Assembly: GCA_025965755.1 (NCBI GenBank)
Contig: JAOPWI010000214.1
Span: 1 to 54,300 of the forward strand
Length of the DNA: 54,300 nt
Reading direction: 5' to 3'
DNA from: Frankiales bacterium
Lineage (GTDB): Bacteria; Actinomycetota; Actinomycetes; Mycobacteriales; SCTD01
Made by a program: the position numbers and the translations under genes. This document shows positions 8,841-44,277 of the stretch, piece after piece. The notes below the pieces were generated by a model, which ran no database searches, was not told the origin of the DNA, and saw only the letters and a program-made list of their open reading frames with translations. Within the stretch, counting starts at the first letter, position 1; the number at the start of each line of letters is the position of its first letter.

Positions 8841-8846
8841 CGGTCG

Positions 8847-22313: not shown

Positions 22314-22314
22314 G

Positions 22315-26067: not shown

Positions 26068-26943
26068 TCACCCTCCGGTGATGTCGCGGCGGCGCAGGAC
26101 CGCGTAGGCGACGGCCAGGCAGACCACGGTCCAGCCGGCGGAGACCAGCAGGCCGTCGATCAGGGGGCCGGAGAAGCGGTCCTCGGTCAGCAGGCCGTGC
26201 CAGGACTCGAACGGTGTGGTCAGCAGCAGGTGCCGCACTGCGTCCAGCCCACCGAGGCTGCCGGCGAGCTGCATGACCAGGCCGATCACCACCGGCCCGA
26301 CGACGCCGACCGCCGGATTGCGGCTGACCACCGACAGCAGCACCGCGACGGCGGTGAACCCGATCAGGGGCGCGATCGCGGTGGCCCAGCTGGCCAGGAC
26401 CAGCGGCAGAGCGGCGTGGGAGGGGAGCAGCTGGCCGGTCAGTCCGACAAGGCTCTGCCGGCCGACGATCAGCGAGCTGGCCGTGATGGTGCTCGCGGCG
26501 AGCAACAGCAGGACCGAGAGCGCGAAGAGCACGGACGCGACGGTCTTGGCCCAGAAGATCTGGGTGCGGCTGACCGAGCGGGTCAGGACGGTCTTCCAGG
26601 TGCCGTGCTGGTCCTCGCTGGCGAAGATGTCGCCGGCGACCAGTGCCGTGAGCAGCGGAAAGACCCACTGGGCGGCGAACCCCAGCACCAGCAGCGGCAT
26701 CGCGTAGCCGCTGTCGTGGATGTGCCGTCCGTAGATGTTGTCCTTGGGCGGCCGCTGTTGCCCGTCGAGGACGAGCACGAGCAGGACGGGGGCGAGCAGG
26801 CTGCCGAGCAGGGTGTAGCGGGCCCGGGCCTGCGCCGCGAGCTTGCGAAGCTCCCAGCGAAGTGCGGTCGGCGTGCCAGGTCGCCGGTTGGCGGCTCCCG
26901 GGCGCCGAACCTCCCGGATTCGGGCGCTGGTCGTGGCGGTCAT
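26068..26943 (-). CDS. ABC-2-type transporter permease
   Basis: 291 aa with six predicted TM segments. ATGA overlap with the upstream ATPase gene. Confidence 0.75.
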   Translation of the reverse strand: MTATTSARIREVRRPGAANRRPGTPTALRWELRKLAAQARARYTLLGSLLAPVLLVLVLDGQQRPPKDNIYGRHIHDSGYAMPLLVLGFAAQWVFPLLTALVAGDIFASEDQHGTWKTVLTRSVSRTQIFWAKTVASVLFALSVLLLLAASTITASSLIVGRQSLVGLTGQLLPSHAALPLVLASWATAIAPLIGFTAVAVLLSVVSRNPAVGVVGPVVIGLVMQLAGSLGGLDAVRHLLLTTPFESWHGLLTEDRFSGPLIDGLLVSAGWTVVCLAVAYAVLRRRDITGG

Positions 26944-27902: not shown

Positions 27903-27971
27903 GTGGGCGACGGTAGGGATCGCGCATGAAGGGACGATGAAGAGCGTGACTGACCAGCTGCGCGTGGTCGG

Positions 27972-29492
27972 CTACGGCTGCACGGGGAGCAGCACGCTCG
28001 CTGTCGTTCCCTCGGGCCCGTGAGCACACGAAAGCCCGAAGCGGTCCTGGTAGCGATGGTGCGTGCCGTTCGAGCACAGGCGAAGCTCGCCGCCGGCCTG
28101 CTCGACCAGGGTGCGGACCAGCGCGAGTCCGAGGCCGGCGCCGGGCCGGGACCGGGCCCCGTCGGCGCGTGCGAACCGGTCAGCGGCGGTCGGCAGGAGT
28201 GCCGGGTCGACGCCCGTTCCGTCGTCGGTCACCGTGAGCACGGCGGTGTCCTCGACCCCCCGGACGTGAACAGCCACCGGGCCCTGTCCGTGCAGCAGGG
28301 CGTTGCCGATCAGGTTGTTCACCGCCTGGCGCACGTGAGCTGCCGACATCGGTACCGGCAACGGCTGTCCGGCCGTCTGGGCGCTGAACGCGACGGTCCG
28401 GCGGCCGTGATCGTCGGCGCTGCGGGCTGCCTCGTCGCGCTCGGCCGTGACGGCGCGCGCGATGTCCGCCAGGTCGCACCGGCTTGCCGCGGTCCCTCGC
28501 CTGGCCTCCCGCTGCCCGCTCCGGTTGTCGCTCGTGCTGATCTGCAGGAGCTGCTCGGCGAGCGCGATGAGGGTGTCGACGTCCTGCCCGAGCTCGCGCA
28601 GCGTCGCCTCGTGCTCGGAGGCGCTGCGCGTCCGTCGTCGCGCCAGCTGGATCCGCGTGGACAGCAGCGTCAGCGGGGTCCGCAGCTCGTGCGAGGCGTC
28701 CTGCGTGAACCGGCGCTCCCGATCGACTGCCTGCTCCAGCGCCTCCAAGACCTCGTTCAGCGTCTGCCCGAGCCGGGTGACCTCGTCGTCGCGGTCGACG
28801 GGGACATCCAGCCGGACACCTCGCGCTCCTGCGGCGATCGACGCGGCTTGCGCGCGGTAGCGCTCGACCGGGGTCAGCGCCGCCTTGGCGAGCCGTTCGC
28901 CGACCACGGCCGTCACCACGAGCGAGGCCAGGCCGGCCACCAGGAGCTGGGCGAGCAGCTCGCGCAGCGCCTCGTCACGGGCGTCCTTGCGATCGGCGAC
29001 GAGCAGCACCCGGGCCGGGCCGGGACCGGGCAGCGGGACCGTCAGCAGCCGAAGCGGCCGTCGACTCGCCGGCAGGAGCGCGCCGATGTCGGCGATGACC
29101 TCCCCGTCAACAGCGGTGCGCGCCTGCCTGGGTGTGAGCAGCGGCGCGGCCCCGAGCTCGGGGCCGTGCGCCAGGACCCGGCCGGCCGCGTCCAGCACCT
29201 GGTACCGGCCGGCGCCGGGCACAGGTGGGAACGAGCCGGTGAGCTCGAGCTGCCCCGTGCTCGCGACCAGCGGCGCCAGGGCGACGGCCTCGTTGCGCAG
29301 GTCGGTGTTCAGGCGCAGGTCCAGGGCGTAGGAGACGCGCCAGTAGACGAACGACCCGGCAGCCGCCAGGACCAGGCTGATCGCGACGACGAAGCCGGCG
29401 ACGAGGCGCACCCGCAGCGGAAGGCTGGACAGCGTCCGCCGGCCTGCCCCCACCGGGCTCACCCGTGGCCGGGTCTGCGGTGGCTCCCTCAC
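27972..29492 (-). CDS. Membrane sensor histidine kinase (two TM, periplasmic loop, HAMP, HisKA, HATPase_c)
   Basis: H-box FTQDASHELRTPLT. G boxes DDGTGV and GAGLGLALV. The GTG at 29492 forms a GTGA overlap with the response regulator stop. Confidence 0.85.
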   Translation of the reverse strand: MREPPQTRPRVSPVGAGRRTLSSLPLRVRLVAGFVVAISLVLAAAGSFVYWRVSYALDLRLNTDLRNEAVALAPLVASTGQLELTGSFPPVPGAGRYQVLDAAGRVLAHGPELGAAPLLTPRQARTAVDGEVIADIGALLPASRRPLRLLTVPLPGPGPARVLLVADRKDARDEALRELLAQLLVAGLASLVVTAVVGERLAKAALTPVERYRAQAASIAAGARGVRLDVPVDRDDEVTRLGQTLNEVLEALEQAVDRERRFTQDASHELRTPLTLLSTRIQLARRRTRSASEHEATLRELGQDVDTLIALAEQLLQISTSDNRSGQREARRGTAASRCDLADIARAVTAERDEAARSADDHGRRTVAFSAQTAGQPLPVPMSAAHVRQAVNNLIGNALLHGQGPVAVHVRGVEDTAVLTVTDDGTGVDPALLPTAADRFARADGARSRPGAGLGLALVRTLVEQAGGELRLCSNGTHHRYQDRFGLSCAHGPEGTTASVLLPVQP

Positions 29493-30166
29493 CCGCCGGC
29501 CGGGTCCAGCCGGTAGCCGACGCCCCGGACGGTCTGGATGGACCGGCGTCCGAACGGACGGTCGATCTTGGACCGGAGGCTGGCGACGTGGACGTCGATC
29601 GTGTTGGACCGCAGGTCGGTGTCGCCGTCCCACACCTCGTCCAGGATCGCGAAGCGGCTGACCACCTGTCCGGACCGGCCCAGCAGCAGCGCGAGGATGT
29701 CGAACTCCCGCGCCGACAGCGCGACGGACTGACCCGCTCGCGACACCTGCCGACCTATCGGGTCGAGGACCAGGTCACCCGCCCGGGCCGCGATCAGCCC
29801 GCTGCCACCACTTCGCCGGTGCAAGGCCCGCAGCCGGGCCAGGAGCTCGTCGAGCTCGAAGGGCTTGGCGAGGTAGTCATCCGCCCCGGCGTCGAGCCCT
29901 CCGACGCGGTCGGACAGGCCTCCCCGAGCCGTCAGCAGCAGAGCCGGAGTCCGGTGCCCCTCGGCCCGCAGGGTCCGGACGATGTCCGGGCCTTCGATCC
30001 CAGGAAGCATCCAGTCCAGCAGCAGGACGTCGAACCCGCCATGACGAGCCGCTCCCAGCGCCGCGACGCCGTCGTGATGCACCGAGGTGGTGCAGCCGCC
30101 TTCGGTCAGCGCCTGCTCGAGCAGTTCGGCCAGTCGCACCTCGTCCTCCGCAACCAGCACCCGCAC
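29489..30166 (-). CDS. OmpR/PhoB-family response regulator
   Basis: VRVLVAEDE.., LLLDWMLPG, DDYLAKPF. Winged-helix C-terminus (..IDVHVASLRSKI..VRGVGYRL). Start set at the GTG at 30166, giving 225 aa. Confidence 0.85.
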   Translation of the reverse strand: MRVLVAEDEVRLAELLEQALTEGGCTTSVHHDGVAALGAARHGGFDVLLLDWMLPGIEGPDIVRTLRAEGHRTPALLLTARGGLSDRVGGLDAGADDYLAKPFELDELLARLRALHRRSGGSGLIAARAGDLVLDPIGRQVSRAGQSVALSAREFDILALLLGRSGQVVSRFAILDEVWDGDTDLRSNTIDVHVASLRSKIDRPFGRRSIQTVRGVGYRLDPAGG

Positions 30167-30175
30167 CGGGACAGT

Positions 30176-30211
30176 CTGGCTCAGCACCGCAACCTGGCTC
30201 AGCACCGCAAC
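30176..30211. repeat. Perfect 18-bp tandem direct repeat (2 copies) directly upstream of the OmpR-type regulator gene
   Basis: CTGGCTCAGCACCGCAAC occurs twice, at 30176-30193 and 30194-30211, ending 10 nt from the GTG start at 30166. Confidence 0.9.
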
Positions 30212-31010
30212 GCCTCGACGGCACGTCCGCAGTGCTGGCACGGGCCCACGCTCCCGTGGCTTCAGCGCCTCCGCGCTTCCCGGGGCGGTTCACTGCTGCG
30301 CGCCGTCGACGTGCTCGCGGACGGCCCGCCGCCGCGAGCGCGCCGGGCGCGCCGTGTGGGCCCTCGCCAGGCGCGTGAAAGGGTCATCCGTCACCGCGGT
30401 ATCAGACACTGTCCGCCACCATCAGCGTGGGCAGTACGGGTGGCGGCGGGGATGTGCGGCCCGGGCCTGACGGCGCCGGCCCGGCGCGGGCGGTGGAGGG
30501 ATCGACAGGAGTGAGGGAGGGGTTGACGCAGCCGCATGCTCAGTTCGCGCACCGTGGTGCCGCCTCGGGCCACGCGCCGGTGCCCTGCGCGCCGGCGCCG
30601 CAGCTCAGGTCCTGTCCCGCTCCGGCAGCTCCGAGCGCCCGTGCCGGCAGGACCCGCCGGTCGACAGGACGGACCGCGGTCCCGGTTCCCGTCGGAGCTG
30701 GCGGCGGTGACGGCGTGACGGCAGTGACCTCGGCCGGCGCTCCCGCGACCGGGCGTCGTGCGGTGAGCCCGCTTCGGCGCCGCCCGGGCGCCGGCGGTGG
30801 CGGCGTCCCCGCGCAGGCGCACCGGCCGCGGCAGGGGCCCGGCTCACGCGAGGTGTGGTCAGGACGGCTTCTCCGGCAGACCGTCGCCCGCCCGCCCGCC
30901 TGCCCGGCCGGCACCCGCAGCGCGTACGACGCTGAGCCGGATGCGGGCCGGTCCGTGACCGCGCCCGATCCGGTCGAGGCGCCGGTGGCCGAGGGAAACG
31001 GGCCCTCCCG

Positions 31011-32171
31011 GTGATCGGTTCATCGGGGAGGCCGCGCCTCTGGCTGGTCGACGACGAGCAGCACGTCCTGTCCGGACTGAAGCGGACGCTGCGCACCCAC
31101 TGGGACGTGACGACCATGACCGAGCCGGTCCTCGCCCTGGCTCGGCTGGAGGCCGCGGTCGCTGACCAGCTCGAGCCGGCTGTGCTGGTCAGCGACATGC
31201 GCATGCCCGGGCTGGACGGGGCTCAGATGCTGGCTCGCGCCCGGTTGCTGTCCCCCGACACGGTGCGCGTGCTGCTGACCGGAGAGGCGGACATCGCCGC
31301 CGCGATCCGCTCTGTCAACGACGGGGGCATCTTCCGGTTCCTCACCAAGCCCTGTCCCCCGGAGGAGCTGGACCGGGCGCTGGAGGCCGCGCTCGAGCAG
31401 CACCGCCTGGTCACAGCGGAGAAGGTCCTGCTCGAGCGCACGCTGGCCGGTGCGGTGGGCGCGCTGAGCGACACGCTGTCGCTGGCCGCGCCGGGCCTGT
31501 TCACGCGGGTCGTCCGGATCAAGCGGATGGCCCTGGCGATCGCCCGGCAGGCCGGGCACAGCCTGCCCTGGCACGACGAGATCGCGCTGACGCTGACGCA
31601 CCTGGGCACGGTCAGCCTGCCGCGCGCGGTGCTGGACAAGCTGGACCGGGACCAGGACCTGCTGCCCGACGAGCAGGCCATGGTGGAGCGGGTGCCCGCC
31701 CTGTCGGCCCGGCTCCTCAACGGCATTCCGCGCCTCGAGGCGGTGCAGGCGGCGGTCACCGCGAGCCCGCTGCGGTTCGACGGCCGCGGTTCACCGTGCG
31801 GCGAACCGACCGGCGCCGAGCTGCCGTTGTCGTCCCGACTGCTGCGCCTGGCCGGCGACCTCGACCGGCTGATCTCCGGCGGCATGCCGGCTGCCGATGC
31901 CGTCAACGTGCTCGCGCAGGACCCCGGCGCCTACGACCCGGACCTGCTGGCTGCCGCCCGGGTCACGGGCGGCTCCGCCAAGCGCAACTTGCAGATGCTG
32001 CCCATCGATCGGCTCGAACGGGGAATGATCATCGCCGTGGACGTGACGTCCGCGTCTGGCGCGCTGCTGATCGGGCGGGGCAGCACCGTCACCGCGGGCC
32101 TGGTCGAGCATCTGAGCAACCACAAGGAGAGCGGCAGCTTTCGGGGCACCATCGTGGTCGAGGTCGTGTGA
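31011..32171 (+). CDS. Response regulator: REC domain plus degenerate HD-GYP-like output domain plus a short C-terminal beta-rich module
   Basis: REC motifs are intact (LVDDE, LVSDMRMPGLDG, LLTG, FLTKP). The HD-GYP positions read FTRVV, THLGTV and SPLRFDGRGSP instead of H..RV, HDxGK and HHExxDGxGYP. Confidence 0.8.
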   Translation: MIGSSGRPRLWLVDDEQHVLSGLKRTLRTHWDVTTMTEPVLALARLEAAVADQLEPAVLVSDMRMPGLDGAQMLARARLLSPDTVRVLLTGEADIAAAIRSVNDGGIFRFLTKPCPPEELDRALEAALEQHRLVTAEKVLLERTLAGAVGALSDTLSLAAPGLFTRVVRIKRMALAIARQAGHSLPWHDEIALTLTHLGTVSLPRAVLDKLDRDQDLLPDEQAMVERVPALSARLLNGIPRLEAVQAAVTASPLRFDGRGSPCGEPTGAELPLSSRLLRLAGDLDRLISGGMPAADAVNVLAQDPGAYDPDLLAAARVTGGSAKRNLQMLPIDRLERGMIIAVDVTSASGALLIGRGSTVTAGLVEHLSNHKESGSFRGTIVVEVV

Positions 32172-32210
32172 CCTGGGCTCAGCCCCCGGGCCCGGTCCCG
32201 GCCGGAGCGG

Positions 32211-33893
32211 TCACAGCCCGGCGACGTCCTCCTGCAGGAACATCGTGCTCAGCAGGTTGAGCAGCTCATCCGGTTCGAAGGGCTTCACCAGGAAGAAGTC
32301 GGCACCGGCCGTCCACGCCGAGGCGCTGGTCAGCGAATCGGTCGCCGCGGTCAGCATGATGACGGGCAGCGGCTGACCCGGCAGCGCGCGAATCCGCTCC
32401 AGAACCTGCAGTCCGCTGATACCCGGCATCATCACGTCGAGGACCACGCAGTCGGGCCGGGCCAGGCCGATCTCCGTCAGCCCGTCCTGGCCGTTCCCCG
32501 CGCTGCGGGTGGAGAAGCCCTCCATCTCGAGGATGTCGACCAGGAGCTGCCGGATGCTCTCGTCGTCGTCGACGACCAGCACCTCCGGAGCGGTCCGGGT
32601 GATCCCCAGGGGGTCCGCCGAGCGTTCCGGGCGGAACGCCGGGGCGGCCCCGGCTGTCGCACTCAGTTCGGGTCGACACTGCTGGCGGGCCAGTCGCGAG
32701 GCCCGCTCGGCGGCCTGGCGCCAGTCGGTGGCGCGCCCCCGCAACTGTGGGTGCTGCAGCAGTGACTCGAGCTCGTCGCGACCCTCCGGCTCACCGTCGG
32801 CCGAGGCCCCGCCGGCCCGGAGGAGCAGGTGTGCGGCCCGCAGGACGCCGTGCACTCCCAGCCCGGCGCCACTGGTACGGGCAGGCTGGTCCTGGGTGGC
32901 GACGGCGGTGACGATCTGCTGAGGCAGACCCCACAGGTTGAGCAGCTCGGCCCCTACCTCGGACCAGGCGAAGCCGGCCCGCTCGGTCGTCACCTGCTCC
33001 ACGGGACGCCCCTCGCGTCGCGCGCGGCGCAGGTCGTCGCAGACGGTGTGGGGATCAGCGGCCGCGGCCGCGAGCATCCCGACATCGCGCAGCGAGGCGG
33101 CAACCTCCACGAAGGGCGCCAGCGCCGGGCTCGCCATCTCGGGGGCCAGCAGCCCGATCGCCACCGAGTGCTCCCAGCCTGCCAGCAGCGCGTCATGCAG
33201 TTCCTGGCCGGCCTCTGGCCAGCTCCACAGGCCGCCCTCCGCCGCGAGCAGCGCTCGGATCATGGGCAGGCCCAGGGTCGCCAGCGCATAGTCGACGGAG
33301 ACGACCCGGGGGCGGGCGCCGTAGAACGCCGAGTTCGCGAGCTGGAGCACCTTGGCGGTCAGCGCAACGTCCCGGTGCGCATGCTCGATGAAGCGCCCGA
33401 GGGTCGCCCCCGGGTCCCCCAGCACGGCTGTGAGGTCCTGCATCAGCCGAGGCGGGCTGGGCAGGGTCCGCAGGGCACCGGCCACGGCCCGCAGCTCAGC
33501 GGCGTTGTCGCGGGCCAGCCCGGCCGTCAGCTGTCGCACGACCTGCGTCAGGTGGGTGACCTCGCACGGCTTGTTGAGGAAGCGGTGCGCCACGAACGCG
33601 GCGCGCACGGCAGCGTCGGGCTCGGTGTGGCCGGAGAGCACCACCCGGGCGACACCGGGATGCTGCTCACGGACACGCGTCAGCAGCTCCGCGCCGCCCA
33701 TGCCGGGCATGCGCATGTCCGAGATCAGGACGTCGCAGGGCTGCTCGGCGATCATCTCCAGCGCGGAGAACCCGCTCGTGGCGAACCGCATGTCCCACTC
33801 ACCCCGCATGCCCCGCAGGGACCTGCGCAGGCCGTCGAGAATGCGCGGCTCGTCATCGACGAACAGCAACCGTGCGTGCGCCGGCTCGGTCAC
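32211..33893 (-). CDS. Dual-receiver signalling protein REC-HDOD-REC
   Basis: The GTG at 33893 forms a GTGA overlap with the kinase stop. REC1 (FVDDE, ISDMRMPGMGG, FLNKP). HDOD region (LPSPPRLMQDL..VLQLANSAFYG). REC2 (VVDDDESI, VLDVMMPGISG, FLVKPF). Confidence 0.85.
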   Translation of the reverse strand: MTEPAHARLLFVDDEPRILDGLRRSLRGMRGEWDMRFATSGFSALEMIAEQPCDVLISDMRMPGMGGAELLTRVREQHPGVARVVLSGHTEPDAAVRAAFVAHRFLNKPCEVTHLTQVVRQLTAGLARDNAAELRAVAGALRTLPSPPRLMQDLTAVLGDPGATLGRFIEHAHRDVALTAKVLQLANSAFYGARPRVVSVDYALATLGLPMIRALLAAEGGLWSWPEAGQELHDALLAGWEHSVAIGLLAPEMASPALAPFVEVAASLRDVGMLAAAAADPHTVCDDLRRARREGRPVEQVTTERAGFAWSEVGAELLNLWGLPQQIVTAVATQDQPARTSGAGLGVHGVLRAAHLLLRAGGASADGEPEGRDELESLLQHPQLRGRATDWRQAAERASRLARQQCRPELSATAGAAPAFRPERSADPLGITRTAPEVLVVDDDESIRQLLVDILEMEGFSTRSAGNGQDGLTEIGLARPDCVVLDVMMPGISGLQVLERIRALPGQPLPVIMLTAATDSLTSASAWTAGADFFLVKPFEPDELLNLLSTMFLQEDVAGL

Positions 33894-35278
33894 GACGCAC
33901 CAGCCCCGGGGCCCTCGACGGGCAGCCGGACCTCGAACCGGGTACCTGAGCCGGGTTCGGAGAACACCTCGATGCTGCCCCCATGGTTCTGCACGACCAC
34001 GGCTCGCGCCAGGGCCAGTCCCTGTCCGGTGCCGTGACCGACGTCCTTGGTGGTGAAGAACGGCTCGAAGATCTTCCCGATGATGTCCGGCGGGATACCA
34101 GGCCCGTTGTCCTGCACGCTGACCGTGACCCATCCGGCGTCATGGCTGGTGGTCACCGAGATGGTCCCCCGGGTGCTCGCGCCCTGCAGCGCGTCGGCCG
34201 CGTTGACCAGCAGGTTCAGGAAGACCTGGTTGAGGCTTCCGACGTGGCACACGACAGGAGGGATGTCCCCCAGCTGCAGGGCGATGTCCGCCACGTACTT
34301 GATCTCGTTGCGCGCGACGGTCAGGGTCGTGCGGAGGGCGTCGTTGAGATCGGCGTGCCCGCGCTCGGCCTGGTCGCGGTAGCTGAACGCCTTCATGGCC
34401 CGCACCAGCGTCGCCACCCGCTCGATGCCCTCCAGGCTCTGCTGAACGGCGAGGGGAACCTCGCTGGCGAGGTAGTCGATGTCCGCTGCGGCCTCGGCAT
34501 TGGTCATCCGGTCGCGGCGCTCCTGCCACGACAGCGCGCCGGGGCCGCCGTCCAGGCACGCCCGGTACTCCAGCAGCAGCTCCAGCATCGTGCTGTACGA
34601 GGAGGCCAGGAAGCGGGTGTTGTCACCGACGAACTGGATCGGCGTGTTGATCTCGTGGGCGATGCCGGCGGACAGCCGTCCCAGGGCTTCCAGCTTCTGG
34701 TCGTGCCGCGACTCGATCTCCCGGCTGAGGGCCTTCTCGGCGTCGGCGAGCCGTCGGCTCTCGGCCTGCGCGGCGTGCAGCCGGGTCGCCAGCTGAGCCG
34801 CGTCGCGTACCGCGATGGCCTGGGCCTGATTCACATAGAGCCGGTCGAGCAGCGAGTCGTGGACGGCGAAGTCCTCCATGGACAGGCCGTGGTCGAACAG
34901 CTCCGCGGCGTCGTTGACGGCCGGCGACCCCAGGAACAGGGCGGTGCGGCTGTCGTCGTCGACGACGACCTGGCCGCGCAGCGTCAGTCCGGGTCCGGTA
35001 GGCGGAAGCAGCCGAAGCAGAACGAGGGCGCCCGGGTGCGCCGCGAAGTCGGCGACGGTGAACGGCAACGGCGGGGACACGAGGTGCGCCACGTCCGTGA
35101 CGGGCTGGCCGATCCGGGCCTGCGGCACCAACCGTTGCAGCACCGGTCCCAGACCGCGGATCATGAGCTGCTCGTCGAAGGCCAGGTAGAAGGGGAAGGC
35201 GGCGTCCAGGACACGGGGAGGCAGCGTCAGGCCGCCCCGGTGCTCAGGGGGGCCCGCGCTCGACGCGGAACTCGTCAC
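33890..35278 (-). CDS. Soluble histidine kinase with an N-terminal HNOBA-like (heme-NO-binding-associated, PAS-like) domain
   Basis: No TM segment. FPFYLAFDEQLMIRGLGPVLQRLVPQ resembles the FPFHIIFDRDL..RVLPQ signature of soluble guanylate cyclase HNOBA domains. H-box SAGIAHEINTPIQF. Complete HATPase_c (NLLVNAADA, DNGPGI, GTGQGLALA). Confidence 0.8.
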   Translation of the reverse strand: MTSSASSAGPPEHRGGLTLPPRVLDAAFPFYLAFDEQLMIRGLGPVLQRLVPQARIGQPVTDVAHLVSPPLPFTVADFAAHPGALVLLRLLPPTGPGLTLRGQVVVDDDSRTALFLGSPAVNDAAELFDHGLSMEDFAVHDSLLDRLYVNQAQAIAVRDAAQLATRLHAAQAESRRLADAEKALSREIESRHDQKLEALGRLSAGIAHEINTPIQFVGDNTRFLASSYSTMLELLLEYRACLDGGPGALSWQERRDRMTNAEAAADIDYLASEVPLAVQQSLEGIERVATLVRAMKAFSYRDQAERGHADLNDALRTTLTVARNEIKYVADIALQLGDIPPVVCHVGSLNQVFLNLLVNAADALQGASTRGTISVTTSHDAGWVTVSVQDNGPGIPPDIIGKIFEPFFTTKDVGHGTGQGLALARAVVVQNHGGSIEVFSEPGSGTRFEVRLPVEGPGAGAS

Positions 35279-35390
35279 AGCCCCCGCCCTCCTGCCGATG
35301 GCCGGGCAGCGTCACCGGGACCGTGGTGGCGGGCCCCTCGCCCGGGCCCCGGGTCCATGAACGCGGCGCTGCCGTCGTGCCCGCCCGCGG

Positions 35391-38300
35391 TCATGCGTCG
35401 CTCCGGGGCAGCCACAGGGTCACGACGCACGCGCCGGACCGTTGCGCGCGCGCGTCGATCGTGCCGCCGGTGGCCTCGATCAGCGTGCGGGCGAGGAACA
35501 GCGCCCCCGTCAGATCCGTGGTCTCGAGCGTCCCGACCCGGCCGGCGGGAAGCGGGGCGAACAGGTCGGCGGTCGCCGGCCAGGCGGGGCCGGCGTCGCG
35601 CACCTGCACGGCGACGCCGTCACCGATGCATTCCACGTCGATGCTGACGGCGGTTCCGGCGGCGCAGCGACGGGACGTGAGGTCCAGCACGGCCGCGACG
35701 GCCTGCTGCAGCGCGACCCGATCGGTCAGCACGCGGACGTCGTCCTGACCGCTCAGGGTGACCGCATTCGTGGTCGACAGACCCGACGCTTGCAGCGAGG
35801 CCGCAAGCTGCGGCTGCAGCAGCAGCGGCTCGAGGTTCACGGCGTGACGCAAGATCTCTCCCCGCGCCTGGTCCAGCAGTTGGTCCAGGTGCCGGCGGAC
35901 CTGCGCCGTGCTGTCCGCCAGGGCCAACAGCGCCTGCCGGATCTGGACCTCGGGCAGGGCGGTCCACGACGCGGCCAGGCGATCACTGGAGATCGACAGG
36001 GTGTTCAAGGGCTCGCGGAGCCGGGCTTCGGCGGTGGCCAGCACCATGGCCTGCGCATGCTGGTGCCGCTGCACCGACCGGTGGCGTTCCTGCTCGGCCT
36101 CGGCGAGTCGCTTGTGGGAGATGCGTTCGCCGAGAATCTGGGCGTAGAACGCCACGGTGTCCAGGGTGTGCCGGTCGACCTCGACGACGCTGGCGCTCGC
36201 GGCACAGAGCGTGCCGACCAGCTTTCCGTCGTCGTCCAGGATCGGAACGCCCAGGTAGCTGCGGATGCCGAGGTCCGTCGCGGCGGAGCATGTCGGGAAC
36301 GTCTCGCGGGCGTCCCTGAGGAAGACCGGCCCGTCGGTGATGGCCCGCGAGCACAGCGAATCCGACCAGCTCACCTGCAGCCCCTCGGTGATCTGCAGAT
36401 CGCCGGTGTTGCTCGCCACCAGGATGTCCTGCCGCCCGTCGGCGACATGGGTGAGGTAGGTCGACTCGAGGCCGGTCATGCGCCGCAGGTGCTCGAGCAG
36501 CGGGCGCGCCAGCTGGTCGATGCCGGCCGGGTCGACCGGCCGCAGGTCGGTTCCGGGCACGTGCGGAACGTCCGGAGCAGGAAAGCCGGGGAGCGGTTCG
36601 TTCTGCCCGAGCAGGCCCACGAGCTGGGCGGCGTCAACCGGCCGGGCGAACAGGTAGCCCTGCGCGAACTGACATCCCTGCGCCCGCAGGAACGCCAGCT
36701 GGGCAGGGGTCTCGACGCCTTCCGCGACGACGTCCAGGCCGAGGCCGCGGGCCATGGCCATCATGGCGACGACCAGCGGCGCCCCTGCCTGCTCGTCGCA
36801 TTCCTTGACGAAGGACCTGTCGATCTTGAGCCGTACGAACGGCAGCTGCCGGAGCTGGCCGAGCATGGAGTAGCCGGTTCCGAAGTCATCGATCGACAGG
36901 GCGACGCCCAGGTCGGCCAGCTGGCGGAGCACGGCAACGCACGCTGACGCCTGCTCCACCGCGGCGGTCTCGGTCAGCTCGAGGTCCAGCCGCTGGGCGG
37001 GAACCCCGCTGTCCCGCAGGGCCTGGGTGACGTCGTCGACGAACCGGCCGTCCAGTTGAACGGCGGAGACGTTGACGGCCATGACGAGGTGGCCGTAGCC
37101 GGCCGCGTGCCACCGGGCCAGCTGGGCGCAGGCGGTGTCCAGCACCCACTTGCCAAGCGGCACGATGAGCCCGGTCTGCTCGGCGAGACCGATGAACTCG
37201 TCGGGGCGGACCAGGCCCCGGGTCGGGTGCTGCCAGCGGACCAGCGCCTCCACACCGACGATCTGCCCGGTGCTCACGTCGACCTGCGGCTGGTAGCGCA
37301 GCTCGAACTCCTGCTCGTCCAGAGCCCGCTGCAGGTCGGCCTGCAGAGCCAGCCGCTGGCAGAGCACGTCCTTCATTCCCTCGCGGTACATGACCAGCCG
37401 GCCTGGCCCGGCGGCGACCGCCGCCGCGAGCGCCACCCGGGCCTCGTGCAGCAGGTCGGAGGTGCTGCCGTCGACCGTGCCGGCCGCGCCGATGCTCACG
37501 CTGAAGCGGGTCGCGTTCACCGCCTCGTCGGGGCGCTCCAGTGCCGCCATGAGCCGCTGCGCCACGGGCAGCAGGCTCTCCGGCTGGTTGCCGCGGCTGA
37601 TCACGGCGAACTCGTCGAGGTCACTGCGAGCCAGCGTGGCGTCGTCCCGCAGGCTGTCCCTCAGCCGGTGGATGATCTCCTGGACGAGCTTCTCCCCTTC
37701 CGGCTCGCCGCGCCCGGTGGTGACCGCCCGCACGTCGTGGACCCGCACCAGCAGCAGGCCGCGGAACGTGGAGTCCGCACCCGGCCGGTCCAGCTCGTCG
37801 CGCAGGCCGGAGGCGTTCAGCAGGCCGGTCATCGCGTCGTGCCGGCTGCTGTGCTCGGCCAGGTCCGCCACGGCGGTGCTCTCGGTGACGTCGTGGAAGG
37901 TCGCCACGGCACCCAGGCACGCGCCCGACTCGTCGTAGAGGGGTCGGGCGGAAGCGACGAACCGGGTCCTGTTGCCCCCTGCCTGGGTCACCGTCAGGGC
38001 CTGCGATTCCACGACCTGCCCCTGCAGCGCCCGGGACAGCGGGGCCTGACTGAGCGGCAGCGGCGCGCCGTCGGGGTGGGACAGGACGAGGTCCTCCAGG
38101 CGCTGGCTGCTCTGGCCGTCGAGCCGGCCGCTCAGGCCGAGCTTGCGCTGCAGCGCGCCGTTCATGAGGATGATCTGCCCTCGGGGGTCACAGGCCGCGA
38201 CACCTTCGGTGAGTGACTCCAGGGTGGCGTCGAGGAACAGTCGCTGCCTGGCTGCCTCGGCCTGCGCCTCCAGGACCTCGCTGACGTCCCGGACGAACGC

Positions 38301-39614
38301 CGACAGCCGCCAGCCCCCCGCGTCCTGGCGGAACGAGGTGGCCAGCTCGACGGTGAACCGGTGGCCGTCACGGCGCTGGACCATGCGTCGGGGCCCGTCG
38401 ATCCCGAGCGACGGACCCTGGATGAGCTGCTTGACGACTGCGCTGAACGTCCCGTGGAGCTCCGCGGGAATGATGAGGTCCGCCAGCCGGCGCCCGCGGG
38501 CCTCCGCAGCGGACCAGCCAAAGGTCCGCTCGGCCTGCCGGTTCCACTGCGTGACGCAGCCGGCCTGGTCGAACTCGATGAAGGCGTCGTGGCCCTGTTC
38601 CACGACCGCCCGGGCCTGTTCCTGGCTGGCGCGCAGCATGGCGGCGTCCTGCTCGCGGGCCATGGCGTGTCCCAGCTGCGCGGCGATCGACAACAGCGCG
38701 CGCTCGTCGACCGGAACGGCCCGGGTCGGATCGCCGAGGAACTGCAGATGGCCGACGACTCCGTTGCGGGCCAGCACCGGAAGGCTGACGAGCTCGTCGC
38801 CGCCGGGTCGGCCGCCCGCCTGCTCGGGGGCGAGAGGATGGCGCGTCAGTCCCTGGTACGCCGCGGCCGACGGCGGGTTGCTGAGCGCCGCGACCGCCTG
38901 CGCGGTGGACGCCCCGACGGTGGCGCCGAACCACTCACCTGCCGTCCAGGGCCCCTGCGTGCCGGGCACCGCAGCGAGCAGACGGCCGGCGGACCAGCCG
39001 GTGACGGCGCAGAGGCGGTCGATCGTGACCTGCACGACAGTGCCCAGGTGCTCGGCCTCGCTGGCGACCCGGGCGACCTCGTGCACCGTCTCGAGCAGCT
39101 GCTCCTGGCGGGCGTGGGCGGCCTCGACGACGCGAGCCTGCGTGAGGTCCTCGACGTGCGCGATCAGGTAGAGCAGCCGCCCGGTGACGTCCTCGACCCG
39201 GGTGCCCTCCACCCGGACCCAGACGACGTCGCCGTCCGGCCGGACGTAGCGCTTGGTGAGTCGAAGGGTGCGCCGCTCGCCCGCGGCCAGCTGCCGGCGA
39301 CCCTGCGTGGTCATCTCCCAGTCATCGGGATGCGTGAACTCGTTGATGGACAGGCGCTGCAGTGCCGGTTCATCACGCCCGACGAGGCGGCAGAAGGCGC
39401 CGTTGCCGGCCAGGATGCGTCCCTGCGCGTCGACCACGGCCGTGGCGATCTGCGCCTCGTAAAAGGCGTTGCGGAACAGACTCTCGAGGTAGACGGCCGC
39501 CGGCTGACTGGAAAGCACCGTGCTCCGTTCTCGATGTGGCGGCTTCGCGCCAGTTGTCCCCTCAGCCGTGTGGCCCAGCGTTCGGTGCATCGGCTCCGTC
39601 GCTGTCGGAATCAA
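35391..39614 (-). CDS. 1407-aa multidomain signalling protein: PAS-GAF-PAS-PAS-GGDEF(degenerate)-EAL-GAF-histidine-kinase-like (degenerate)
   Basis: The GGDEF motif is replaced by SDLDEF. The EAL motifs are all present ([31 protein letters not shown]). A GAF domain follows the EAL. The C-terminal DHp-like box reads [12 protein letters not shown] with no His at the canonical position. The HATPase-like region lacks the N-box Asn and has DAGPA instead of DxGxG. Confidence 0.85.
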
Positions 39615-39749: not shown

Positions 39750-41132
39750 CTACAGGGCCAGCAGGTAGCGGTCGCGCTCCCAGGGGGTGACCTGGGCGTG
39801 GAAGGCGTCCCACTCGCCGTGCTTCATGTCGACGTACTCCTGCACGAAGCCGCCCGGGAACACCTGGTGCACGAGCGGGTCCGCCTCGAACGCCTCCACG
39901 GCCTCCAGCAGGGTGCGCGGCAACCGGACGCTGTTGGTGCCCGGCTGCGACCGCCCGTCGGTGAGCGCGGCGTCGACCGGGTCACCGGGGTCCAGGGCCT
40001 GCTGCACGCCCTCGAGGCCGGCAGCCAGCAGGAACGCCGCCGCGAGATAGGTGTTGGCCGCCGAGTCCACGACACGGTTCTCGATGGCCGGGCGGTTCAC
40101 CGGCAGGCGCAGCATGCAGGAGCGGTTCTGCTCGCCGTAGGCCGACCACACGGGAGCCCAGGAGGCCGAGCCGTCGGCGAGCCGGGGATTGAGCCGCTTG
40201 TAGGAGTTCACCGTCGGCGTCGTGATTGCCGACAGGGCGCCGGCGTGGCGCATGATGCCGGCGGTGAACCCGTACGCGATCTTGCTCCAGCCCTTGCCCC
40301 GCGGGTCGCCCGGATCGCGCATGAGGTTCTCGCCCGTGGTGGCGTCGGCGAGGCTCATGTTGTAGTGGTGGCCCGAGCCCCAGGCCTCGGTGTACGGCTT
40401 GGGCATGAAGGTGGCCAGCAGCCCGCACTCCTTCGCGATCTGGCGGGTCATCAGCCGGAAGAAGGAGAGGCGATCGGCCATCTCGAGGGCCGGCGCGTAG
40501 TCGAAGTCGAACTCGAACTGGCCGTTCCCGCCCTCGTGGTCGAAGCTGTAGACGCCGAAGTCGGTCTCCTGCATCGCTGCGACCATCCGGCTCAGGAACG
40601 GCATCGCATCCAGCGTGCTCTCCAGGTCATAGGCCGGCGTGGGGGACATCGCGCCGCTGCGCGCCATGGGCACCAGGTAGCCGTCCGTGCGCTCGAGCGA
40701 CTCGGGCAAAAAGGCGTAGAACTCGGTCTCGATCCCGAGGTTCATGGTGAACCCGGCGGCTGCGGCCCGGTCCAGCTGGCGCTTGAGGATGGAGCGCGGG
40801 CAGTGCACGAAGGGCTCGTCCCCGGCGAAGAGCAGGTCGGCGGCCATCCAGGCAAACCGCCGGTCCCAGGGCAGGACCCGCAGGGTGGTCAGGTCGGGCA
40901 TCGCGACCGACTCGTCCTCGTTGGGCGTCATCTCCCCCAGGCCGCTGATGCCCCGGGGGGTGTAGCGCTCGGAGCCGGCCAGCAGGTTCGGCAGGTGGTC
41001 GATCGGCACCACCTTGGACTTGCTGCGCCCGAAGACGTCGATCCAGCCGCCGACCGCGAACTCCACGCCGCTCGCGGCCAGCTGCTCGGCCAGCGCCCGG
41101 TGGGCCGGGTCCATCTCACGCACGGTGTCCAC
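39750..41132 (-). CDS. Glutamine synthetase family protein (GlnA3/GlnA4-like gamma-glutamyl-amine ligase)
   Basis: 460 aa. Typical GS catalytic-domain sequence (..NLGIETEFYAF.., ..FMPKPY..GSGHHYNMSL..). GTG start is preceded by GAGGAG. Confidence 0.8.
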   Translation of the reverse strand: MDTVREMDPAHRALAEQLAASGVEFAVGGWIDVFGRSKSKVVPIDHLPNLLAGSERYTPRGISGLGEMTPNEDESVAMPDLTTLRVLPWDRRFAWMAADLLFAGDEPFVHCPRSILKRQLDRAAAAGFTMNLGIETEFYAFLPESLERTDGYLVPMARSGAMSPTPAYDLESTLDAMPFLSRMVAAMQETDFGVYSFDHEGGNGQFEFDFDYAPALEMADRLSFFRLMTRQIAKECGLLATFMPKPYTEAWGSGHHYNMSLADATTGENLMRDPGDPRGKGWSKIAYGFTAGIMRHAGALSAITTPTVNSYKRLNPRLADGSASWAPVWSAYGEQNRSCMLRLPVNRPAIENRVVDSAANTYLAAAFLLAAGLEGVQQALDPGDPVDAALTDGRSQPGTNSVRLPRTLLEAVEAFEADPLVHQVFPGGFVQEYVDMKHGEWDAFHAQVTPWERDRYLLAL

Positions 41133-41422
41133 TCGGTCTCCTCGTTGGGGGACGCGTCAGGCACGTGCACGTCACACGTGGCATATTCGTCGTCCCGGGG
41201 AACCGTAGAGTCGAGGTTCGACGATGTCGAGGCAAACAACAATTGTTAATCGAACGGCAACACGGCTGCCCCGGCGCGCGGATCCCGGCCGGGCGGTGAC
41301 CGCGCGACCCGGTGGTTCGGCGTCGCGGGCGGCGCGCGTCCGGCGCTCCGGGCGGGGTCGACACGAGGACCTGCCGCCCCACCTCCCGACCGCCCAGCCA
41401 GGCGCACAGCAGGATGCGCCCC

Positions 41423-41866
41423 ATGCTGGATGAGATGGACAAGCGGATCGTCCGGCTTCTGCAGCGCAACGCGCGGGTGCCGAACACCGAGATCGCGCGG
41501 ACGCTCAACGTCACCGAGACCACCGTCCGCAACCGGGTCAGCCGGCTCCTGGACGAGGGGCTCATCGAGATCGTCGCCGTCCTTGACCCCAAGGCGGTGG
41601 AGGCCAACATCTCGGCCTTCCTGGCCCTGACCGTGCACCAGTCGCAGGCCGAGCAGGTCGCCGAGAGCCTGCGGGAGCGGTCCGAGGTGCGCTACGTCGC
41701 CAGCGTGCTGGCCCGCGCCCAGATCCTCGTCGAGGCCTTCTTCCGCGACCACGAGCACCTGCTCGCCTTCCACACGGGCTTCCTGCCGACCCTGACCGCC
41801 GTCAGCTCGGTCGAGACCTCGATCGTGCTGCGCGTGCACAAGCTGTCGTACGAGTGGGAGATCTGA
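41423..41866 (+). CDS. Lrp/AsnC-family transcriptional regulator
   Basis: MLDEMDKRIVRLLQRNARVPNTEIARTLNVTETTVRNRVSRL HTH, then a RAM-like C-terminal domain. Start chosen at the ATG at 41423, with AGGA 8 nt upstream; the ATG at 41414 is also possible. Confidence 0.85.
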   Translation: MLDEMDKRIVRLLQRNARVPNTEIARTLNVTETTVRNRVSRLLDEGLIEIVAVLDPKAVEANISAFLALTVHQSQAEQVAESLRERSEVRYVASVLARAQILVEAFFRDHEHLLAFHTGFLPTLTAVSSVETSIVLRVHKLSYEWEI

Positions 41867-41885
41867 CCGCAGGCGCAACCTGCGG
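41867..41885 (+). terminator. Short hairpin directly after the Lrp gene stop
   Basis: CCGCAGG-cgcaa-CCTGCGG, a 7-bp stem starting 1 nt after the TGA. Confidence 0.3.
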
Positions 41886-42102
41886 CGCGTCCTCGTGGCC
41901 TGGCCGCGAGCGGCGCGGACAGGCCCACTGCACTCCCCCCGCGGGGGTTCTGCGCGTCCGTCGCGTCACGGTGGGGCTCCCTCCTGGGGCGTGCGTGTCG
42001 TTCCTGTTCCGTCTCCATGAAGATCGTTCACCGGGACCGGTTCGCGGCTTCTGCGGCCCGCAAGATGGCGACCCGACTCGCCCCCCCAGTCCGAGGAGCT
42101 CC

Positions 42103-44274
42103 ATGCCCGCCCCCCTCCGCCGGCTCGTACCGCTGGCCGTCGCTGCCTCCCTGGCCGCTGCCGCGCTGGCGAGTACCCCCGCGCTTGCCGCCCCCGACGT
42201 GTCCGCCAAGGCCCTCGGCCCGTTCGTGCTCGAGGAGGCGACGATTGCCGACGTGCGGTCAGCGCTGCTCGCGGGCCGGACGTCGTGCAGCGCGATCGTC
42301 GACACCTACCTGGCCCGGATCGGCGCCTACGACGATGCCGGCCCGGCCATCAACTCGCTCATCGCGGTCGCCGACGACGCCCGTGCGCAGGCGGCGGCGC
42401 TGGATGCCCGGTACGCCGCCGGCGGGCCCGTCGGCTCGCTGCACTGCATCCCGATGGTCCTGAAGGACAACATCGACACCAAGGACATGGCGACGACTGC
42501 CGGGTCGAAGACGCTCGCAGGGTCCGTGCCCACCCGCGACGCCACGATCACCGAGCGGCTCCGCGCCGCTGGCGCGCTGGTGCTGGCCAAGGGCAACCTC
42601 GACGAGTGGGCGCACGGCGGCATGGCCGGCTACAGCTCCGTCAACGGCCAGACCAAGAACCCGTACGACCTGACCCGCTCGCCCGCGGGATCCAGCGGCG
42701 GCCCGGCCGCTGCGGTCGCCGCCAACCTCGCGATGGCCGGAGTCGGCAGCGACACTCTGGGCTCCCTGCGCGGACCCATCGACGCCGAGTCGCTCGCCGG
42801 CGTGAAGCCCACGCTCGGGCTCATCAGCGGCGCGGGCGTGGTTCCGTTCTCGCTGACCTTTGACGTCGCCGGCCCGCTGACCCGGTCCGTCGCCGACAGC
42901 GCGGAGATCTTGAACGTCATTGCCGGTGTCGACCCCGACGACGCCCGCACCGCCGCGGCGCGGGGCAAGGTCGCCGCCGACTACCGCGCAGGCCTGACGC
43001 CCCACGCGCTGCAGGGCGTCCGTATCGGACTCCTGCGAAACCTGGTCACCGGAGGCAACACCGCAGTGTTCGACCAGGCGCTCGCGACGATGCGTCGGCT
43101 CGGCGCGGAGATCGTCGAGCTGCAGGCACCTGCCGCCATCGGCCAGCTGTCGACCGACTACTACACGATCATCTCCCAGACCGAGTTCAAGACCCAGCTC
43201 GGCGAGTACCTCGCGAGCCGCCGGCCCGGCGCCGCGGTGACGTCGCATGCCGACGTCCTGGCGGCGAGCTCGCAGCCCGGCTTCGGCATGGCTCCGGCCG
43301 TGCTCGCCCGCCTGCAGGCGGAGGCCCGGCGGGGCACGCTGAACGAGCCCGAGTACGTCAAGGCGGTGCAGACCGGTCCGCAGGCCATGCGGGACGTCGT
43401 CGACGGCCTGCTCGCCAACAACGACGTCGACGTGCTGCTGCACCCGGCGTCCACCGCCTCGGCGATGGCCAGCCTGTCGGGCTACCCGGCCGCGCTCGTG
43501 CCGGGCGGCACCAACGCCGCCGGCATCTCGGTCGGTCTCGCCCTGCAGGGCGCCGCCTTCACCGAGCCCCGGCTGCTCGGGTACGCCTACGCGTTCGAGC
43601 AGGCCGCGCAGGCACGGACCACCCCGGCGCTGACCCCCCGGCTCGCGTCGACGCCGTCCGCCACCCCGACCGTCACCGCAACGCCCTCGGCCACGCCGAC
43701 CGCGACCACGACGTGCGGCACCAAGCCCGTCCTCACCCTGAGCAGCACGACGATGTCCGCCACCGGAGCCACCGGCGTCTCGGTGAGCGGCGCGCCGGGC
43801 TCGACCGTCGACCTGCTCGCCTACACGCGCCCGTCCACCAGCTACCAGGTCGTGCGCAGCGGCACCGTGGCGGCCGACGGGACACTGGCGTTCCCGGCGC
43901 TTGCGCCGCCAGCCAACACCCGGCTGTACGCGCGAACGCGGGGCTGCCCGGCCAACCCGGCGGATGACAGCCAGGTGCTCCACGTCCGCACCACGCTGAC
44001 CCTCACGGCCAGCCGCCTCGGCGCCAAGAGCTACGAGTTCAGCGGTGCCGCACTCCCGGCGCGGCCCGGCGGCCTGGTCGTGTCGCTCTACCGGATCGCG
44101 GCCGACGGTCGGCAGGTGCTGGCCGCGCAGACGCGGGCCAGCGCCACGACCGGCGGCTGGACGATCCGCCGGACCTTCACCGGCTCCGGCCGGTACGGGT
44201 TCGTCGTGCGCACCGGACAGGACCTGCAGAACGCTGCAGGCGCCAGCAACGTGCGCAGCACGCTCGTCTTCTGA
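42103..44274 (+). CDS. Secreted amidase-signature-family amidase with a Thr/Pro linker and two C-terminal beta-sandwich-like modules
   Basis: Signal peptide MPAPLRRLVPLAVAASLAAAALASTPALA. AS motif GSSGGPAAAVAA with upstream K (VLKDN). Linker ATPSATPTVTATPSATPTATTT. ATG at 42103 is preceded by GAGGAG. Confidence 0.85.
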   Translation: MPAPLRRLVPLAVAASLAAAALASTPALAAPDVSAKALGPFVLEEATIADVRSALLAGRTSCSAIVDTYLARIGAYDDAGPAINSLIAVADDARAQAAALDARYAAGGPVGSLHCIPMVLKDNIDTKDMATTAGSKTLAGSVPTRDATITERLRAAGALVLAKGNLDEWAHGGMAGYSSVNGQTKNPYDLTRSPAGSSGGPAAAVAANLAMAGVGSDTLGSLRGPIDAESLAGVKPTLGLISGAGVVPFSLTFDVAGPLTRSVADSAEILNVIAGVDPDDARTAAARGKVAADYRAGLTPHALQGVRIGLLRNLVTGGNTAVFDQALATMRRLGAEIVELQAPAAIGQLSTDYYTIISQTEFKTQLGEYLASRRPGAAVTSHADVLAASSQPGFGMAPAVLARLQAEARRGTLNEPEYVKAVQTGPQAMRDVVDGLLANNDVDVLLHPASTASAMASLSGYPAALVPGGTNAAGISVGLALQGAAFTEPRLLGYAYAFEQAAQARTTPALTPRLASTPSATPTVTATPSATPTATTTCGTKPVLTLSSTTMSATGATGVSVSGAPGSTVDLLAYTRPSTSYQVVRSGTVAADGTLAFPALAPPANTRLYARTRGCPANPADDSQVLHVRTTLTLTASRLGAKSYEFSGAALPARPGGLVVSLYRIAADGRQVLAAQTRASATTGGWTIRRTFTGSGRYGFVVRTGQDLQNAAGASNVRSTLVF

Positions 44275-44277
44275 GTC

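Follow-up and report, generated by a model that had tools for sequence, protein, structure and literature searches.

We analyzed a 54.3-kb contig (the window) from a metagenome-assembled genome (MAG) labelled "Frankiales bacterium", 73% in G+C, which carries a cluster of four signaling genes at positions 31011-39614. With moderate confidence, we read this cluster as one member of a widespread two-component cassette, composed of a histidine kinase, a response regulator in which a receiver (REC) is joined to an HDOD domain, and a second regulator in which a receiver is joined to a catalytically dead HD-GYP domain. On this reading the kinase belongs to a rare sub-lineage with an HNOBA sensory module, and the H-NOX gene upstream of it has been cut to a 3' stub that abuts the fourth gene, encoding a large EAL/pseudokinase protein.

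Within 31011-39614, the four open reading frames (ORFs) named by a first-pass annotation of this DNA are the only ones with coding-type codon composition (G+C of 0.90-0.93 at third and about 0.5 at second codon positions). They lie at the coordinates it gave, and its domain calls for all four proteins are borne out by Pfam. No membrane-strength hydrophobic segment is present in any of the four, and Rfam, promoter and terminator scans of 29-41.5 kb returned nothing meaningful. The three cassette genes and their parts are as follows.

33890-35278, minus strand: soluble mosaic histidine kinase, 462 aa (Pfam HNOBA and HATPase_c)
about 34724-35230, minus strand: HNOBA/H-NOXA module and signaling helix (S-helix) of the kinase, residues ~17-185 (Pfam and PDB matches)
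kinase residues ~187-462, minus strand: dimerization/histidine-phosphotransfer and catalytic (DHp/CA) core, with H-box AHEINTP and phospho-acceptor His208 (34655-34657)
32211-33893, minus strand: REC-HDOD-REC response regulator, 560 aa (Pfam Response_reg twice, 173 bits; HDOD, 108.9 bits)
about 33531-33869, minus strand: first receiver of REC-HDOD-REC, REC1 (Asp59; Pfam)
about 32883-33464, minus strand: HDOD domain of REC-HDOD-REC (Pfam)
about 32253-32582, minus strand: second receiver of REC-HDOD-REC, REC2 (Asp485; Pfam)
31011-32171, plus strand: REC with degenerate HD-GYP and a conserved C-terminal module, 386 aa, here REC-HD_5 (Pfam HD_5, 90 bits; Response_reg, 54.9 bits)
about 31044-31382, plus strand: receiver of REC-HD_5 (Asp62)
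about 31464-31946, plus strand: HD_5-like domain of REC-HD_5
about 31983-32168, plus strand: C-terminal module of REC-HD_5, residues ~325-386

The kinase stop codon and the REC-HDOD-REC start codon overlap as GTGA, the arrangement from which translational coupling of the two had been proposed. The REC-HD_5 gene is convergent with this kinase operon, with a gap of 39 bp to the REC-HDOD-REC gene.

Relatives of the cassette were collected by an alignment scan with REC-HDOD over one genome per species, the loci being picked by REC-HDOD similarity alone. At least 573 relatives were confirmed, and gene neighborhoods were counted for the best 80 of them (79 where BLAST found the HDOD gene). These 80 loci belong to Actinomycetota, Acidobacteriota, Planctomycetota, Gemmatimonadota, Nitrospirota, Chloroflexota, Verrucomicrobiota and several proteobacterial classes (Pseudomonadota). 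A homologue of the window kinase core is adjacent on the same strand in 65 of the 79 loci; a homologue of the window HD_5 domain is adjacent on the same strand in 49 and lies within 10 kb in 61. The commonest gene order is kinase, then REC-HDOD, then REC-HD_5. At three loci (L001-L003) the kinase gene is followed by REC-HDOD with overlapping stop and start codons and then by a gene for a 127-aa REC protein, with a REC-HD_5 gene nearby. In the window likewise, the gene for an AHEINTP-type core stands next to, and co-directional with, the REC-HDOD gene. Kinase, REC-HDOD and REC with degenerate HD-GYP, grouped on adjacency by the first-pass annotation, are thus strongly co-conserved, and the triad was found in at least several hundred species representatives and in more than seven phyla. 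No description of it was found in the literature searched. It is a conserved, widespread and so far uncharacterized two-component cassette.

The sensory domains of 54 other cassette kinases were PAS (45), REC (17), GAF (6), MHYT (4), 4HB_MCP, Cache and others; HNOBA occurred in none. HNOBA therefore does not define the cassette, whose sensor appears to be interchangeable.

The surroundings of individual cassettes vary. At L003, a soil metagenome contig, the cassette sits inside a flagellar cluster, with FliE/F/G/H/I/J on one side and flagellin, FliD and FliS on the other (1-9748 and 14304-21671). The genera with the closest kinases are largely motile-spore Micromonosporaceae (Actinoplanes, Couchioplanes, Dactylosporangium, Catenuloplanes). 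From the flagellar context and these genera, a link between the cassette and motility is possible; no flagellar or chemotaxis genes occur among the Pfam-scanned neighbors in the window, a scan that left ORFs 15850-25565 outside. At L001 (a Mycobacteriales MAG, 13519-18550) and L002 (Couchioplanes, 13330-18487), the dead HD-GYP gene is parted from REC-HDOD and REC by genes for a subtilisin-like peptidase S8 and a second kinase with PAS or GAF/PAS domains, an extended version that is absent from the window. L004 (Dactylosporangium) likewise has a kinase-core homologue, though a weaker one (33%), directly before its dead HD-GYP gene.

Both window regulators carry the marks of the cassette. The REC-HDOD part of REC-HDOD-REC is 46-51% identical to the REC-HDOD proteins of L001-L003, and its C-terminal receiver is 45-52% identical to their separate 127-aa REC proteins. 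The window gene is a fusion: in other Actinobacteria the cassette REC-HDOD gene and a single-domain REC gene stand one after the other, and here the two are joined. The acidic pocket, the Asp, the Thr/Ser and the Lys are intact in all three receivers of the two regulators. REC-HD_5 is 37-46% identical to the cassette partners of L001-L003. Its HD-GYP motifs are degenerate, as first annotated, with THLG for HDIGK and LRFDGRGSP for the canonical HHEKWDGSGYP, and it therefore lacks the HD, HHE and GYP motifs of an active phosphodiesterase of the RpfG type. This loss is general in the family. The catalytic HD is gone from 66 of 66 partner proteins (typically replaced by SQ[IL]G); of HHE...GYP, all 66 have either nothing left or no more than Q.K.[FY]DGxGxP. 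The window protein also has the further cassette-partner marks IPRLE, FDGRGSP and the C-terminal module. Among curated families, NCBIfam NosR (NF053512) scores best for it, with 193 bits against a cutoff of 400. A single-sequence structure model of REC-HD_5 was unusable (mean pLDDT, the predicted local distance difference test score, of 36.7).

The C-terminal module, about 65 aa long, is itself kept in 66 of 66 dead HD-GYP partners across phyla (the window protein and 65 homologues, L001-L082), with the consensus L.pGMvLaeDV..G.LLv.kGqEVT..L..RL.NF...I..pv.V. Ten of these modules were scanned against Pfam, and none matched even at E<=10.

The kinase departs from the rest of the cassette in its sensor. 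It scores 80.9 bits for Pfam HNOBA (cutoff 23.4) and 100.8 bits for HATPase_c, and only 16.5 bits for HisKA, a weak match because its H-box is of the AHEINTP type. The best PDB matches of its N-terminus are 2P04 and 2P08, the H-NOXA domain of the Nostoc punctiforme STHK (E 1e-11), followed by the PAS-like domain of soluble guanylate cyclase (sGC) beta1/alpha1. Since the N-terminus matches solved H-NOXA and sGC PAS-like domains, it is a genuine HNOBA/H-NOXA module and no ordinary PAS fold, an outcome on which the first-pass annotation had let its proposal stand or fall. An exhaustive HMMER search with this N-terminus found 1607 representative proteins, 630 of them at E<=1e-10, and in nearly all of the best 150 the module sits at the extreme N-terminus. 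Pfam HNOBA matched all 60 of the top representatives scanned; the module was fused to histidine kinases in 37 and to GGDEF/EAL enzymes in 13, and HNOB occurred in the same chain in one only. Used by itself in a word-indexed search, the same N-terminus failed to recover any sequence, its own included, a limit of sensitivity in that search, as the HMMER relatives show.

Two different ancestries meet at the signaling helix. Over residues 6-193 the kinase shares 46% identity with the N-terminal part of an HNOBA-PAS-GGDEF-EAL protein (P0121); over residues 177-461 it shares 79% with P0002, a kinase whose own N-terminus is different. The core is also 60-70% identical to a large set of actinobacterial kinases with PAS or GAF sensors, and 65-70% identical to the kinases of L001-L003, each of which precedes REC-HDOD. 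The kinase is thus a mosaic of an HNOBA N-terminus and a cassette-type core. One collinear homologue was found, protein P0268 at locus L089, which aligns over residues 19-459 with 43% identity and has the same AHEINTP H-box. Among the 150 best HNOBA representatives, P0268 alone shares the combination of HNOBA with a cassette-type DHp/CA core.

The genes upstream of HNOBA genes are consistent: counted over six other HNOBA genes, five have H-NOX as their direct upstream neighbor. A stand-alone HNOB gene lies upstream of the HNOBA gene at L084 and L086-L088 (with a methyltransferase gene between) and at L085, L090 and L089; at L085 and L090 the HNOB gene overlaps the HNOBA gene start. The only HNOBA locus examined that has no HNOB is L091, a 5-kb contig. 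At L089, an intact gene for a 186-aa H-NOX protein precedes P0268 with a 4-nt overlap, and the gene after P0268 begins MRVLFVDDEPRILDGLR, the signature of the cassette REC-HDOD receiver, before the contig ends. Because L089 runs from H-NOX to HNOBA kinase to cassette-type REC, cassettes with HNOBA form an established lineage and did not arise by an accident of assembly. On two Acidimicrobiales-type contigs (L084, 8536-13316; L086, 4538-8220), the order is H-NOX, S-adenosylmethionine (SAM)-methyltransferase, then HNOBA-(PAS-)GGDEF-EAL; at L084 a Haem_oxygenas_2 gene follows this operon.

In the window, the first-pass annotation saw no H-NOX gene in any frame nearby and proposed a variant that does without one. 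There is no complete HNOB in any six-frame fragment or Pfam-scanned neighbor of the window, but the following remnant lies at the position that H-NOX occupies elsewhere.

35244-35390, minus strand: putative 3' remnant of an H-NOX (HNOB) gene, 48 codons and a stop (PRAGTTAAPRSWTRGPGEGPATTVPVTLPGHRQEGGGCDEFRVERGPP, then stop), by alignment to H-NOX C-termini

At one end the remnant follows the EAL stop codon without a gap; at the other it shares 35 nt with the beginning of the kinase gene. Against the L085 H-NOX protein it is the top hit of 739 six-frame fragments (phmmer, E 0.007), and it aligns in one register with three H-NOX proteins, over their residues ~148-182 (the last ~35). The aligned stretches are VPVTLPGHRQEGGGCDEFRV in the window, VSVTLDRTRDEGHDHDEFVV at L089 and ASVTQTASREAGGRCDEFLV at L085. 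The Smith-Waterman score is 56 against L085 (shuffles 24.9+/-4.1, none of 2000 reaching it), 49 against L089 (24.1+/-4.1, none of 5000) and 34 against L086 (reached by 28 of 2000). In the remnant and in L085 alike, the stop comes 11 residues after CDEF, and in both the start codon of the downstream gene falls inside the CDEF codons. Compared in phase over 120 nt, the DNA is 51% identical, whereas 4482 background comparisons gave 31+/-4% and at most 47%. We read 35244-35390 as the 3' stub of a deleted H-NOX gene. With the stub at the H-NOX position, and with H-NOX still intact beside a kinase of this lineage at L089, the lack of H-NOX in the window would be a matter of decay, not design. The stub is also in the same frame as the EAL gene, parted from it only by the TGA at 35391-35393, so that read-through would add 48 residues to the EAL protein; the shared frame is probably a coincidence, with a chance of 1 in 3.

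The fourth gene lies on the other side of this break.

35391-39614, minus strand: soluble protein of 1407 aa, with three PAS domains, GGDEF (SDLDEF), intact EAL, GAF, DHp-like (no His) and degenerate HATPase_c (Pfam)
about 37407-37844, minus strand: its GGDEF domain (Pfam, 56 bits)
about 36639-37340, minus strand: its EAL domain (Pfam, 239.6 bits, full length)
about 35403-36524, minus strand: its GAF-pseudokinase tail (HATPase_c, 29 bits, cutoff 26.4)

The first-pass annotation described a degenerate GGDEF, an intact EAL and a pseudokinase tail in this protein, and mostly degenerate output domains in the cluster as a whole; the motifs agree. SDLDEF aligns with the GGDEF motif of P0121 and the RxxD I-site is lost, a pattern that does not fit an active diguanylate cyclase. 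By eye, the catalytic and metal-binding residues of EAL are all present (EALxR, N, ExxE, DDFGTGYS, KxD, EGVE, Q), and on these motifs the domain is predicted to be an active phosphodiesterase. In the tail, Ala replaces the phospho-acceptor His (AEARLREPL vs SHELRTPL), and alignments to P0153, P0123 and P0287 show degeneration of both the N-box Asn and the G2 box, which sets the tail apart from functional histidine kinases. NCBIfam gives matches to phosphodiesterases of the DosP/DibA type, all below cutoff. The GAF domain of the tail resembles those of GAF-GGDEF proteins; the pseudokinase part had no relatives in a word-indexed search, which returned relatives at the GAF level only. Descent of the GGDEF-EAL part from the HNOBA-PAS-GGDEF-EAL lineage was considered and rejected, its 38% identity to P0121 being ordinary for the family.

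The first-pass annotation suggested that all four genes may form one unit, an H-NOX-independent network with a single EAL phosphodiesterase under the joint control of HD-GYP, HDOD and pseudokinase modules. We consider this doubtful. The four genes are adjacent, the EAL gene shares the strand of the kinase gene and lies 112 bp upstream of it, and EAL is the sole predicted catalytic domain of cyclic di-GMP (c-di-GMP) turnover in the cluster. At L052, an uncultured actinomycete, the cassette itself includes a PAS-GGDEF-EAL gene, which has the dead HD-GYP gene on one side and a cassette-type kinase on the other, with overlapping frames; at L083, a REC-EAL gene lies nearby. Moreover, an EAL enzyme, HnoB, is inhibited by the dead HD-GYP protein HnoD (PMC8846402). 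However, of 83 other loci only 8 have an EAL gene within 10 kb of the cassette, and the EAL protein is thus no conserved member of it. It has no receiver, as first annotated (no Pfam Response_reg match), and its tail is without detectable relatives beyond GAF. The H-NOX gene that the proposal does without seems to have been lost by decay, and the adjacency to the kinase looks secondary because the EAL gene ends exactly where the H-NOX stub begins. The simplest explanation of this adjacency is that it came about when a rearrangement or deletion took H-NOX away. The EAL protein and the cassette may be linked in function, but conservation does not support this.

The comparison with the Hno network of Shewanella oneidensis and Vibrio cholerae (HnoX, HnoK, HnoB, HnoC, HnoD), drawn when the cluster was first annotated, holds in part. 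Common to both would be one kinase that serves several receivers, a link to c-di-GMP turnover and an ancestral H-NOX input (here the stub, with the intact gene at L089). The window REC protein with a dead HD-GYP is a candidate counterpart of HnoD, the likeness being at motif level only: the HD and HHE of HnoD are changed to SE and QLE (bioRxiv 10.1101/2021.11.05.467447), those of the window protein to TH(L) and L(RF), and those of its family to SQ and Q.K. What does not carry over is the wiring. The window has no REC-EAL target like HnoB, and the Hno step from kinase to REC-EAL is absent because the EAL protein, itself not a conserved neighbor, has no receiver. The second regulator, REC-HDOD(-REC), has no Hno counterpart, and the window H-NOX is truncated. 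To our knowledge HnoK carries no HNOBA module, unlike the window kinase. The window cluster is not a member of the Hno network as defined.

Related systems on the input side are the H-NOX/HNOBA pairs of the Nostoc punctiforme STHK (PDB 2P04) and of actinobacterial loci L084-L088 and L090. These share with the window an N-terminal HNOBA module of PAS-like fold followed by a signaling helix, and an H-NOX gene upstream of the HNOBA gene; in the window, a stub stands in place of the complete stand-alone HNOB gene that adjoins HNOBA in such operons. Their outputs differ, being HisKA (SHELRTPL) or GGDEF-EAL where the window kinase has the cassette DHp/CA core (AHEINTP). On the output side, a soluble kinase with a HEIN-type H-box phosphorylates NosR, a REC protein with a degenerate HD-GYP (HG-GTP), in the NosP-NosK-NosR (NahK/NarR) system (PMC12570481). 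The window resembles it in pairing a soluble kinase with a dead HD-GYP regulator tied to c-di-GMP. The NosRPK system is without an HDOD regulator, and REC-HD_5 is no NosR family member because its score falls far below the family cutoff. No FIST/NosP gene was found among the Pfam-scanned neighbors (26068-30241 and 39750-47253) or the other scanned ORFs of the window, 15850-25565 lying outside the scan.

REC-HDOD proteins are known singly. DVU0330 of Desulfovibrio vulgaris does not hydrolyze c-di-GMP (PMC4114195); GsmR of Xanthomonas campestris is described there as missing the conserved active-site His and as having no phosphatase or phosphodiesterase activity. SadB, which contains an HDOD domain, binds c-di-GMP (PMC6543031). 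GsmR and DVU0330 share with the window the REC-HDOD architecture with a non-catalytic HDOD, and GsmR and SadB share the motility link, the cassette of L003 lying in a flagellar cluster. All three differ from the window protein, in which a second receiver is fused at the C-terminus, and the conserved triad is not described in the GsmR, DVU0330 and SadB studies. REC-HDOD proteins and dead HD-GYP regulators have each been studied singly; the window holds a sub-lineage, with H-NOX/HNOBA input and here a decayed H-NOX, of the uncharacterized cassette that joins them.

Several points weigh against our account of the cluster. A profile built from four H-NOX sequences gives the stub an E value of only 0.069, though it is still the best fragment in the window, and Pfam HNOB does not detect the 48-aa stub. 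The match is short (about 30-35 residues), and part of it could reflect translation-initiation constraint, since the last 11 codons of the stub overlap the kinase start and ribosome-binding region. In REC-HD_5, the THLG at the HD position departs from the SQ[IL]G of the family, and the likeness to HnoD and NosR stays at the level of motifs, with NosR below its cutoff. Phosphotransfer and the action of the outputs are read from gene order and analogy.

The first of these points would suit a kinase that never had an H-NOX partner in cis, in which HNOBA is a stand-alone PAS-type sensor or a dimerization module and the stub is a similarity of chance or constraint in GC-rich sequence. The HNOBA kinase of L091, with no H-NOX in its 5 kb, would be a second such case. 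We think this improbable. Chance would have to place three independent H-NOX proteins in one register, with scores that no shuffle reached for two of them and a DNA identity above all 4482 background comparisons. It would also have to set the stop and the downstream start codon as they are at L085, at the very position of H-NOX in HNOBA relatives that include the collinear L089. Least probable, though with some residual weight, is a mis-join at the EAL/stub junction that conceals an intact upstream H-NOX: the contig is from a MAG, the exact kinase sequence is on record from this contig alone and the break falls exactly at a gene boundary, but there is no shift in composition at the junction, the ORFs on either side are complete with clean ends and starts, and no repeat that could promote a mis-join was noticed (no explicit repeat search was made).

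The Pfam-scanned neighbors of the cluster are ABC transporter, OmpR/HAMP two-component system, GlnA-like, AsnC, amidase and Mce-type genes. A G+C-rich stretch of ~770 bp (30242-31010) separates an OmpR-type regulator gene from REC-HD_5; none of its frames is coding-type, and it has no Pfam, Rfam, promoter or terminator match. An ORF of 195 codons at 30427-31014, plus strand, would overlap the REC-HD_5 start by GTGA and is of non-coding composition. A long run of minus-strand genes occupies 14558-24958; of these, an MlaD-domain gene at 14558-15853 is the sole one covered by the Pfam scan, and an MMPL-family gene (12246-14561) follows just downstream. Judged from gene sizes and arrangement, the run resembles an Mce-type lipid/steroid uptake operon, in which the genes at 14558-22346 would be MlaD-like candidates and 23172-24958 holds two genes of permease size. 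At 5070-6542, an alkane-hydroxylase-like fatty-acid desaturase is fused to rubredoxin, with a flavoprotein of the rubredoxin/ferredoxin-reductase type at 3655-4875 and a divergent PucR-type regulator at 6611-7831. An amidase-family ORF of 806 aa (41854-44274) matches Pfam Amidase over residues 148-537 only and has long N- and C-terminal extensions; its start codon may be over-extended.

If the cassette works as its parts suggest, the kinase would autophosphorylate on His208, which is intact, and pass phosphate to three receivers, at Asp59 and Asp485 of REC-HDOD-REC and Asp62 of REC-HD_5. The HEINT motif suggests a bifunctional kinase/phosphatase, which would likely dephosphorylate the same receivers. 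The non-catalytic HDOD and HD-GYP-like outputs may then act on c-di-GMP enzymes through protein contacts, c-di-GMP binding or both, by analogy with HnoD acting on HnoB, with what has been proposed for NosR and with c-di-GMP binding by SadB. The neighboring EAL enzyme would be a candidate target. In the ancestral state, H-NOX would have modulated the kinase through the HNOBA module; with no H-NOX in cis, the kinase may be unregulated or constitutive, be served by an H-NOX encoded elsewhere, or respond through the PAS-like HNOBA acting alone.

A broader version of this scheme can be put forward tentatively. The triad would be a widespread module in which the two dead HD-superfamily outputs, together with the unannotated ~65-aa C-terminal module, either serve as c-di-GMP receptors switched by phosphorylation or control c-di-GMP enzymes allosterically, with H-NOX/HNOBA as one of many plug-in inputs. 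The window module would just have lost its nitric oxide (NO) sensor and would now control the adjoining orphan EAL/pseudokinase enzyme.

HDOD is a common output domain of response regulators and its function is still unknown, and dead HD-GYP regulators are known from few cases (HnoD, NosR and RpfG-like proteins). The cassette joins the two under one kinase, from Actinobacteria to Acidobacteria and Proteobacteria, and so provides a testable system for both: one kinase, two or three receivers and, in some genomes, a candidate phosphodiesterase partner. The sub-lineage formed by L089 and the window extends H-NOX/HNOBA signaling to a new output. It also illustrates sensor swapping at the signaling helix, and how the gene for an auxiliary sensor can decay beside a kinase that remains whole. 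Of the leads given here, the cassette is the most valuable, more so than the four-gene arrangement in which we met it.

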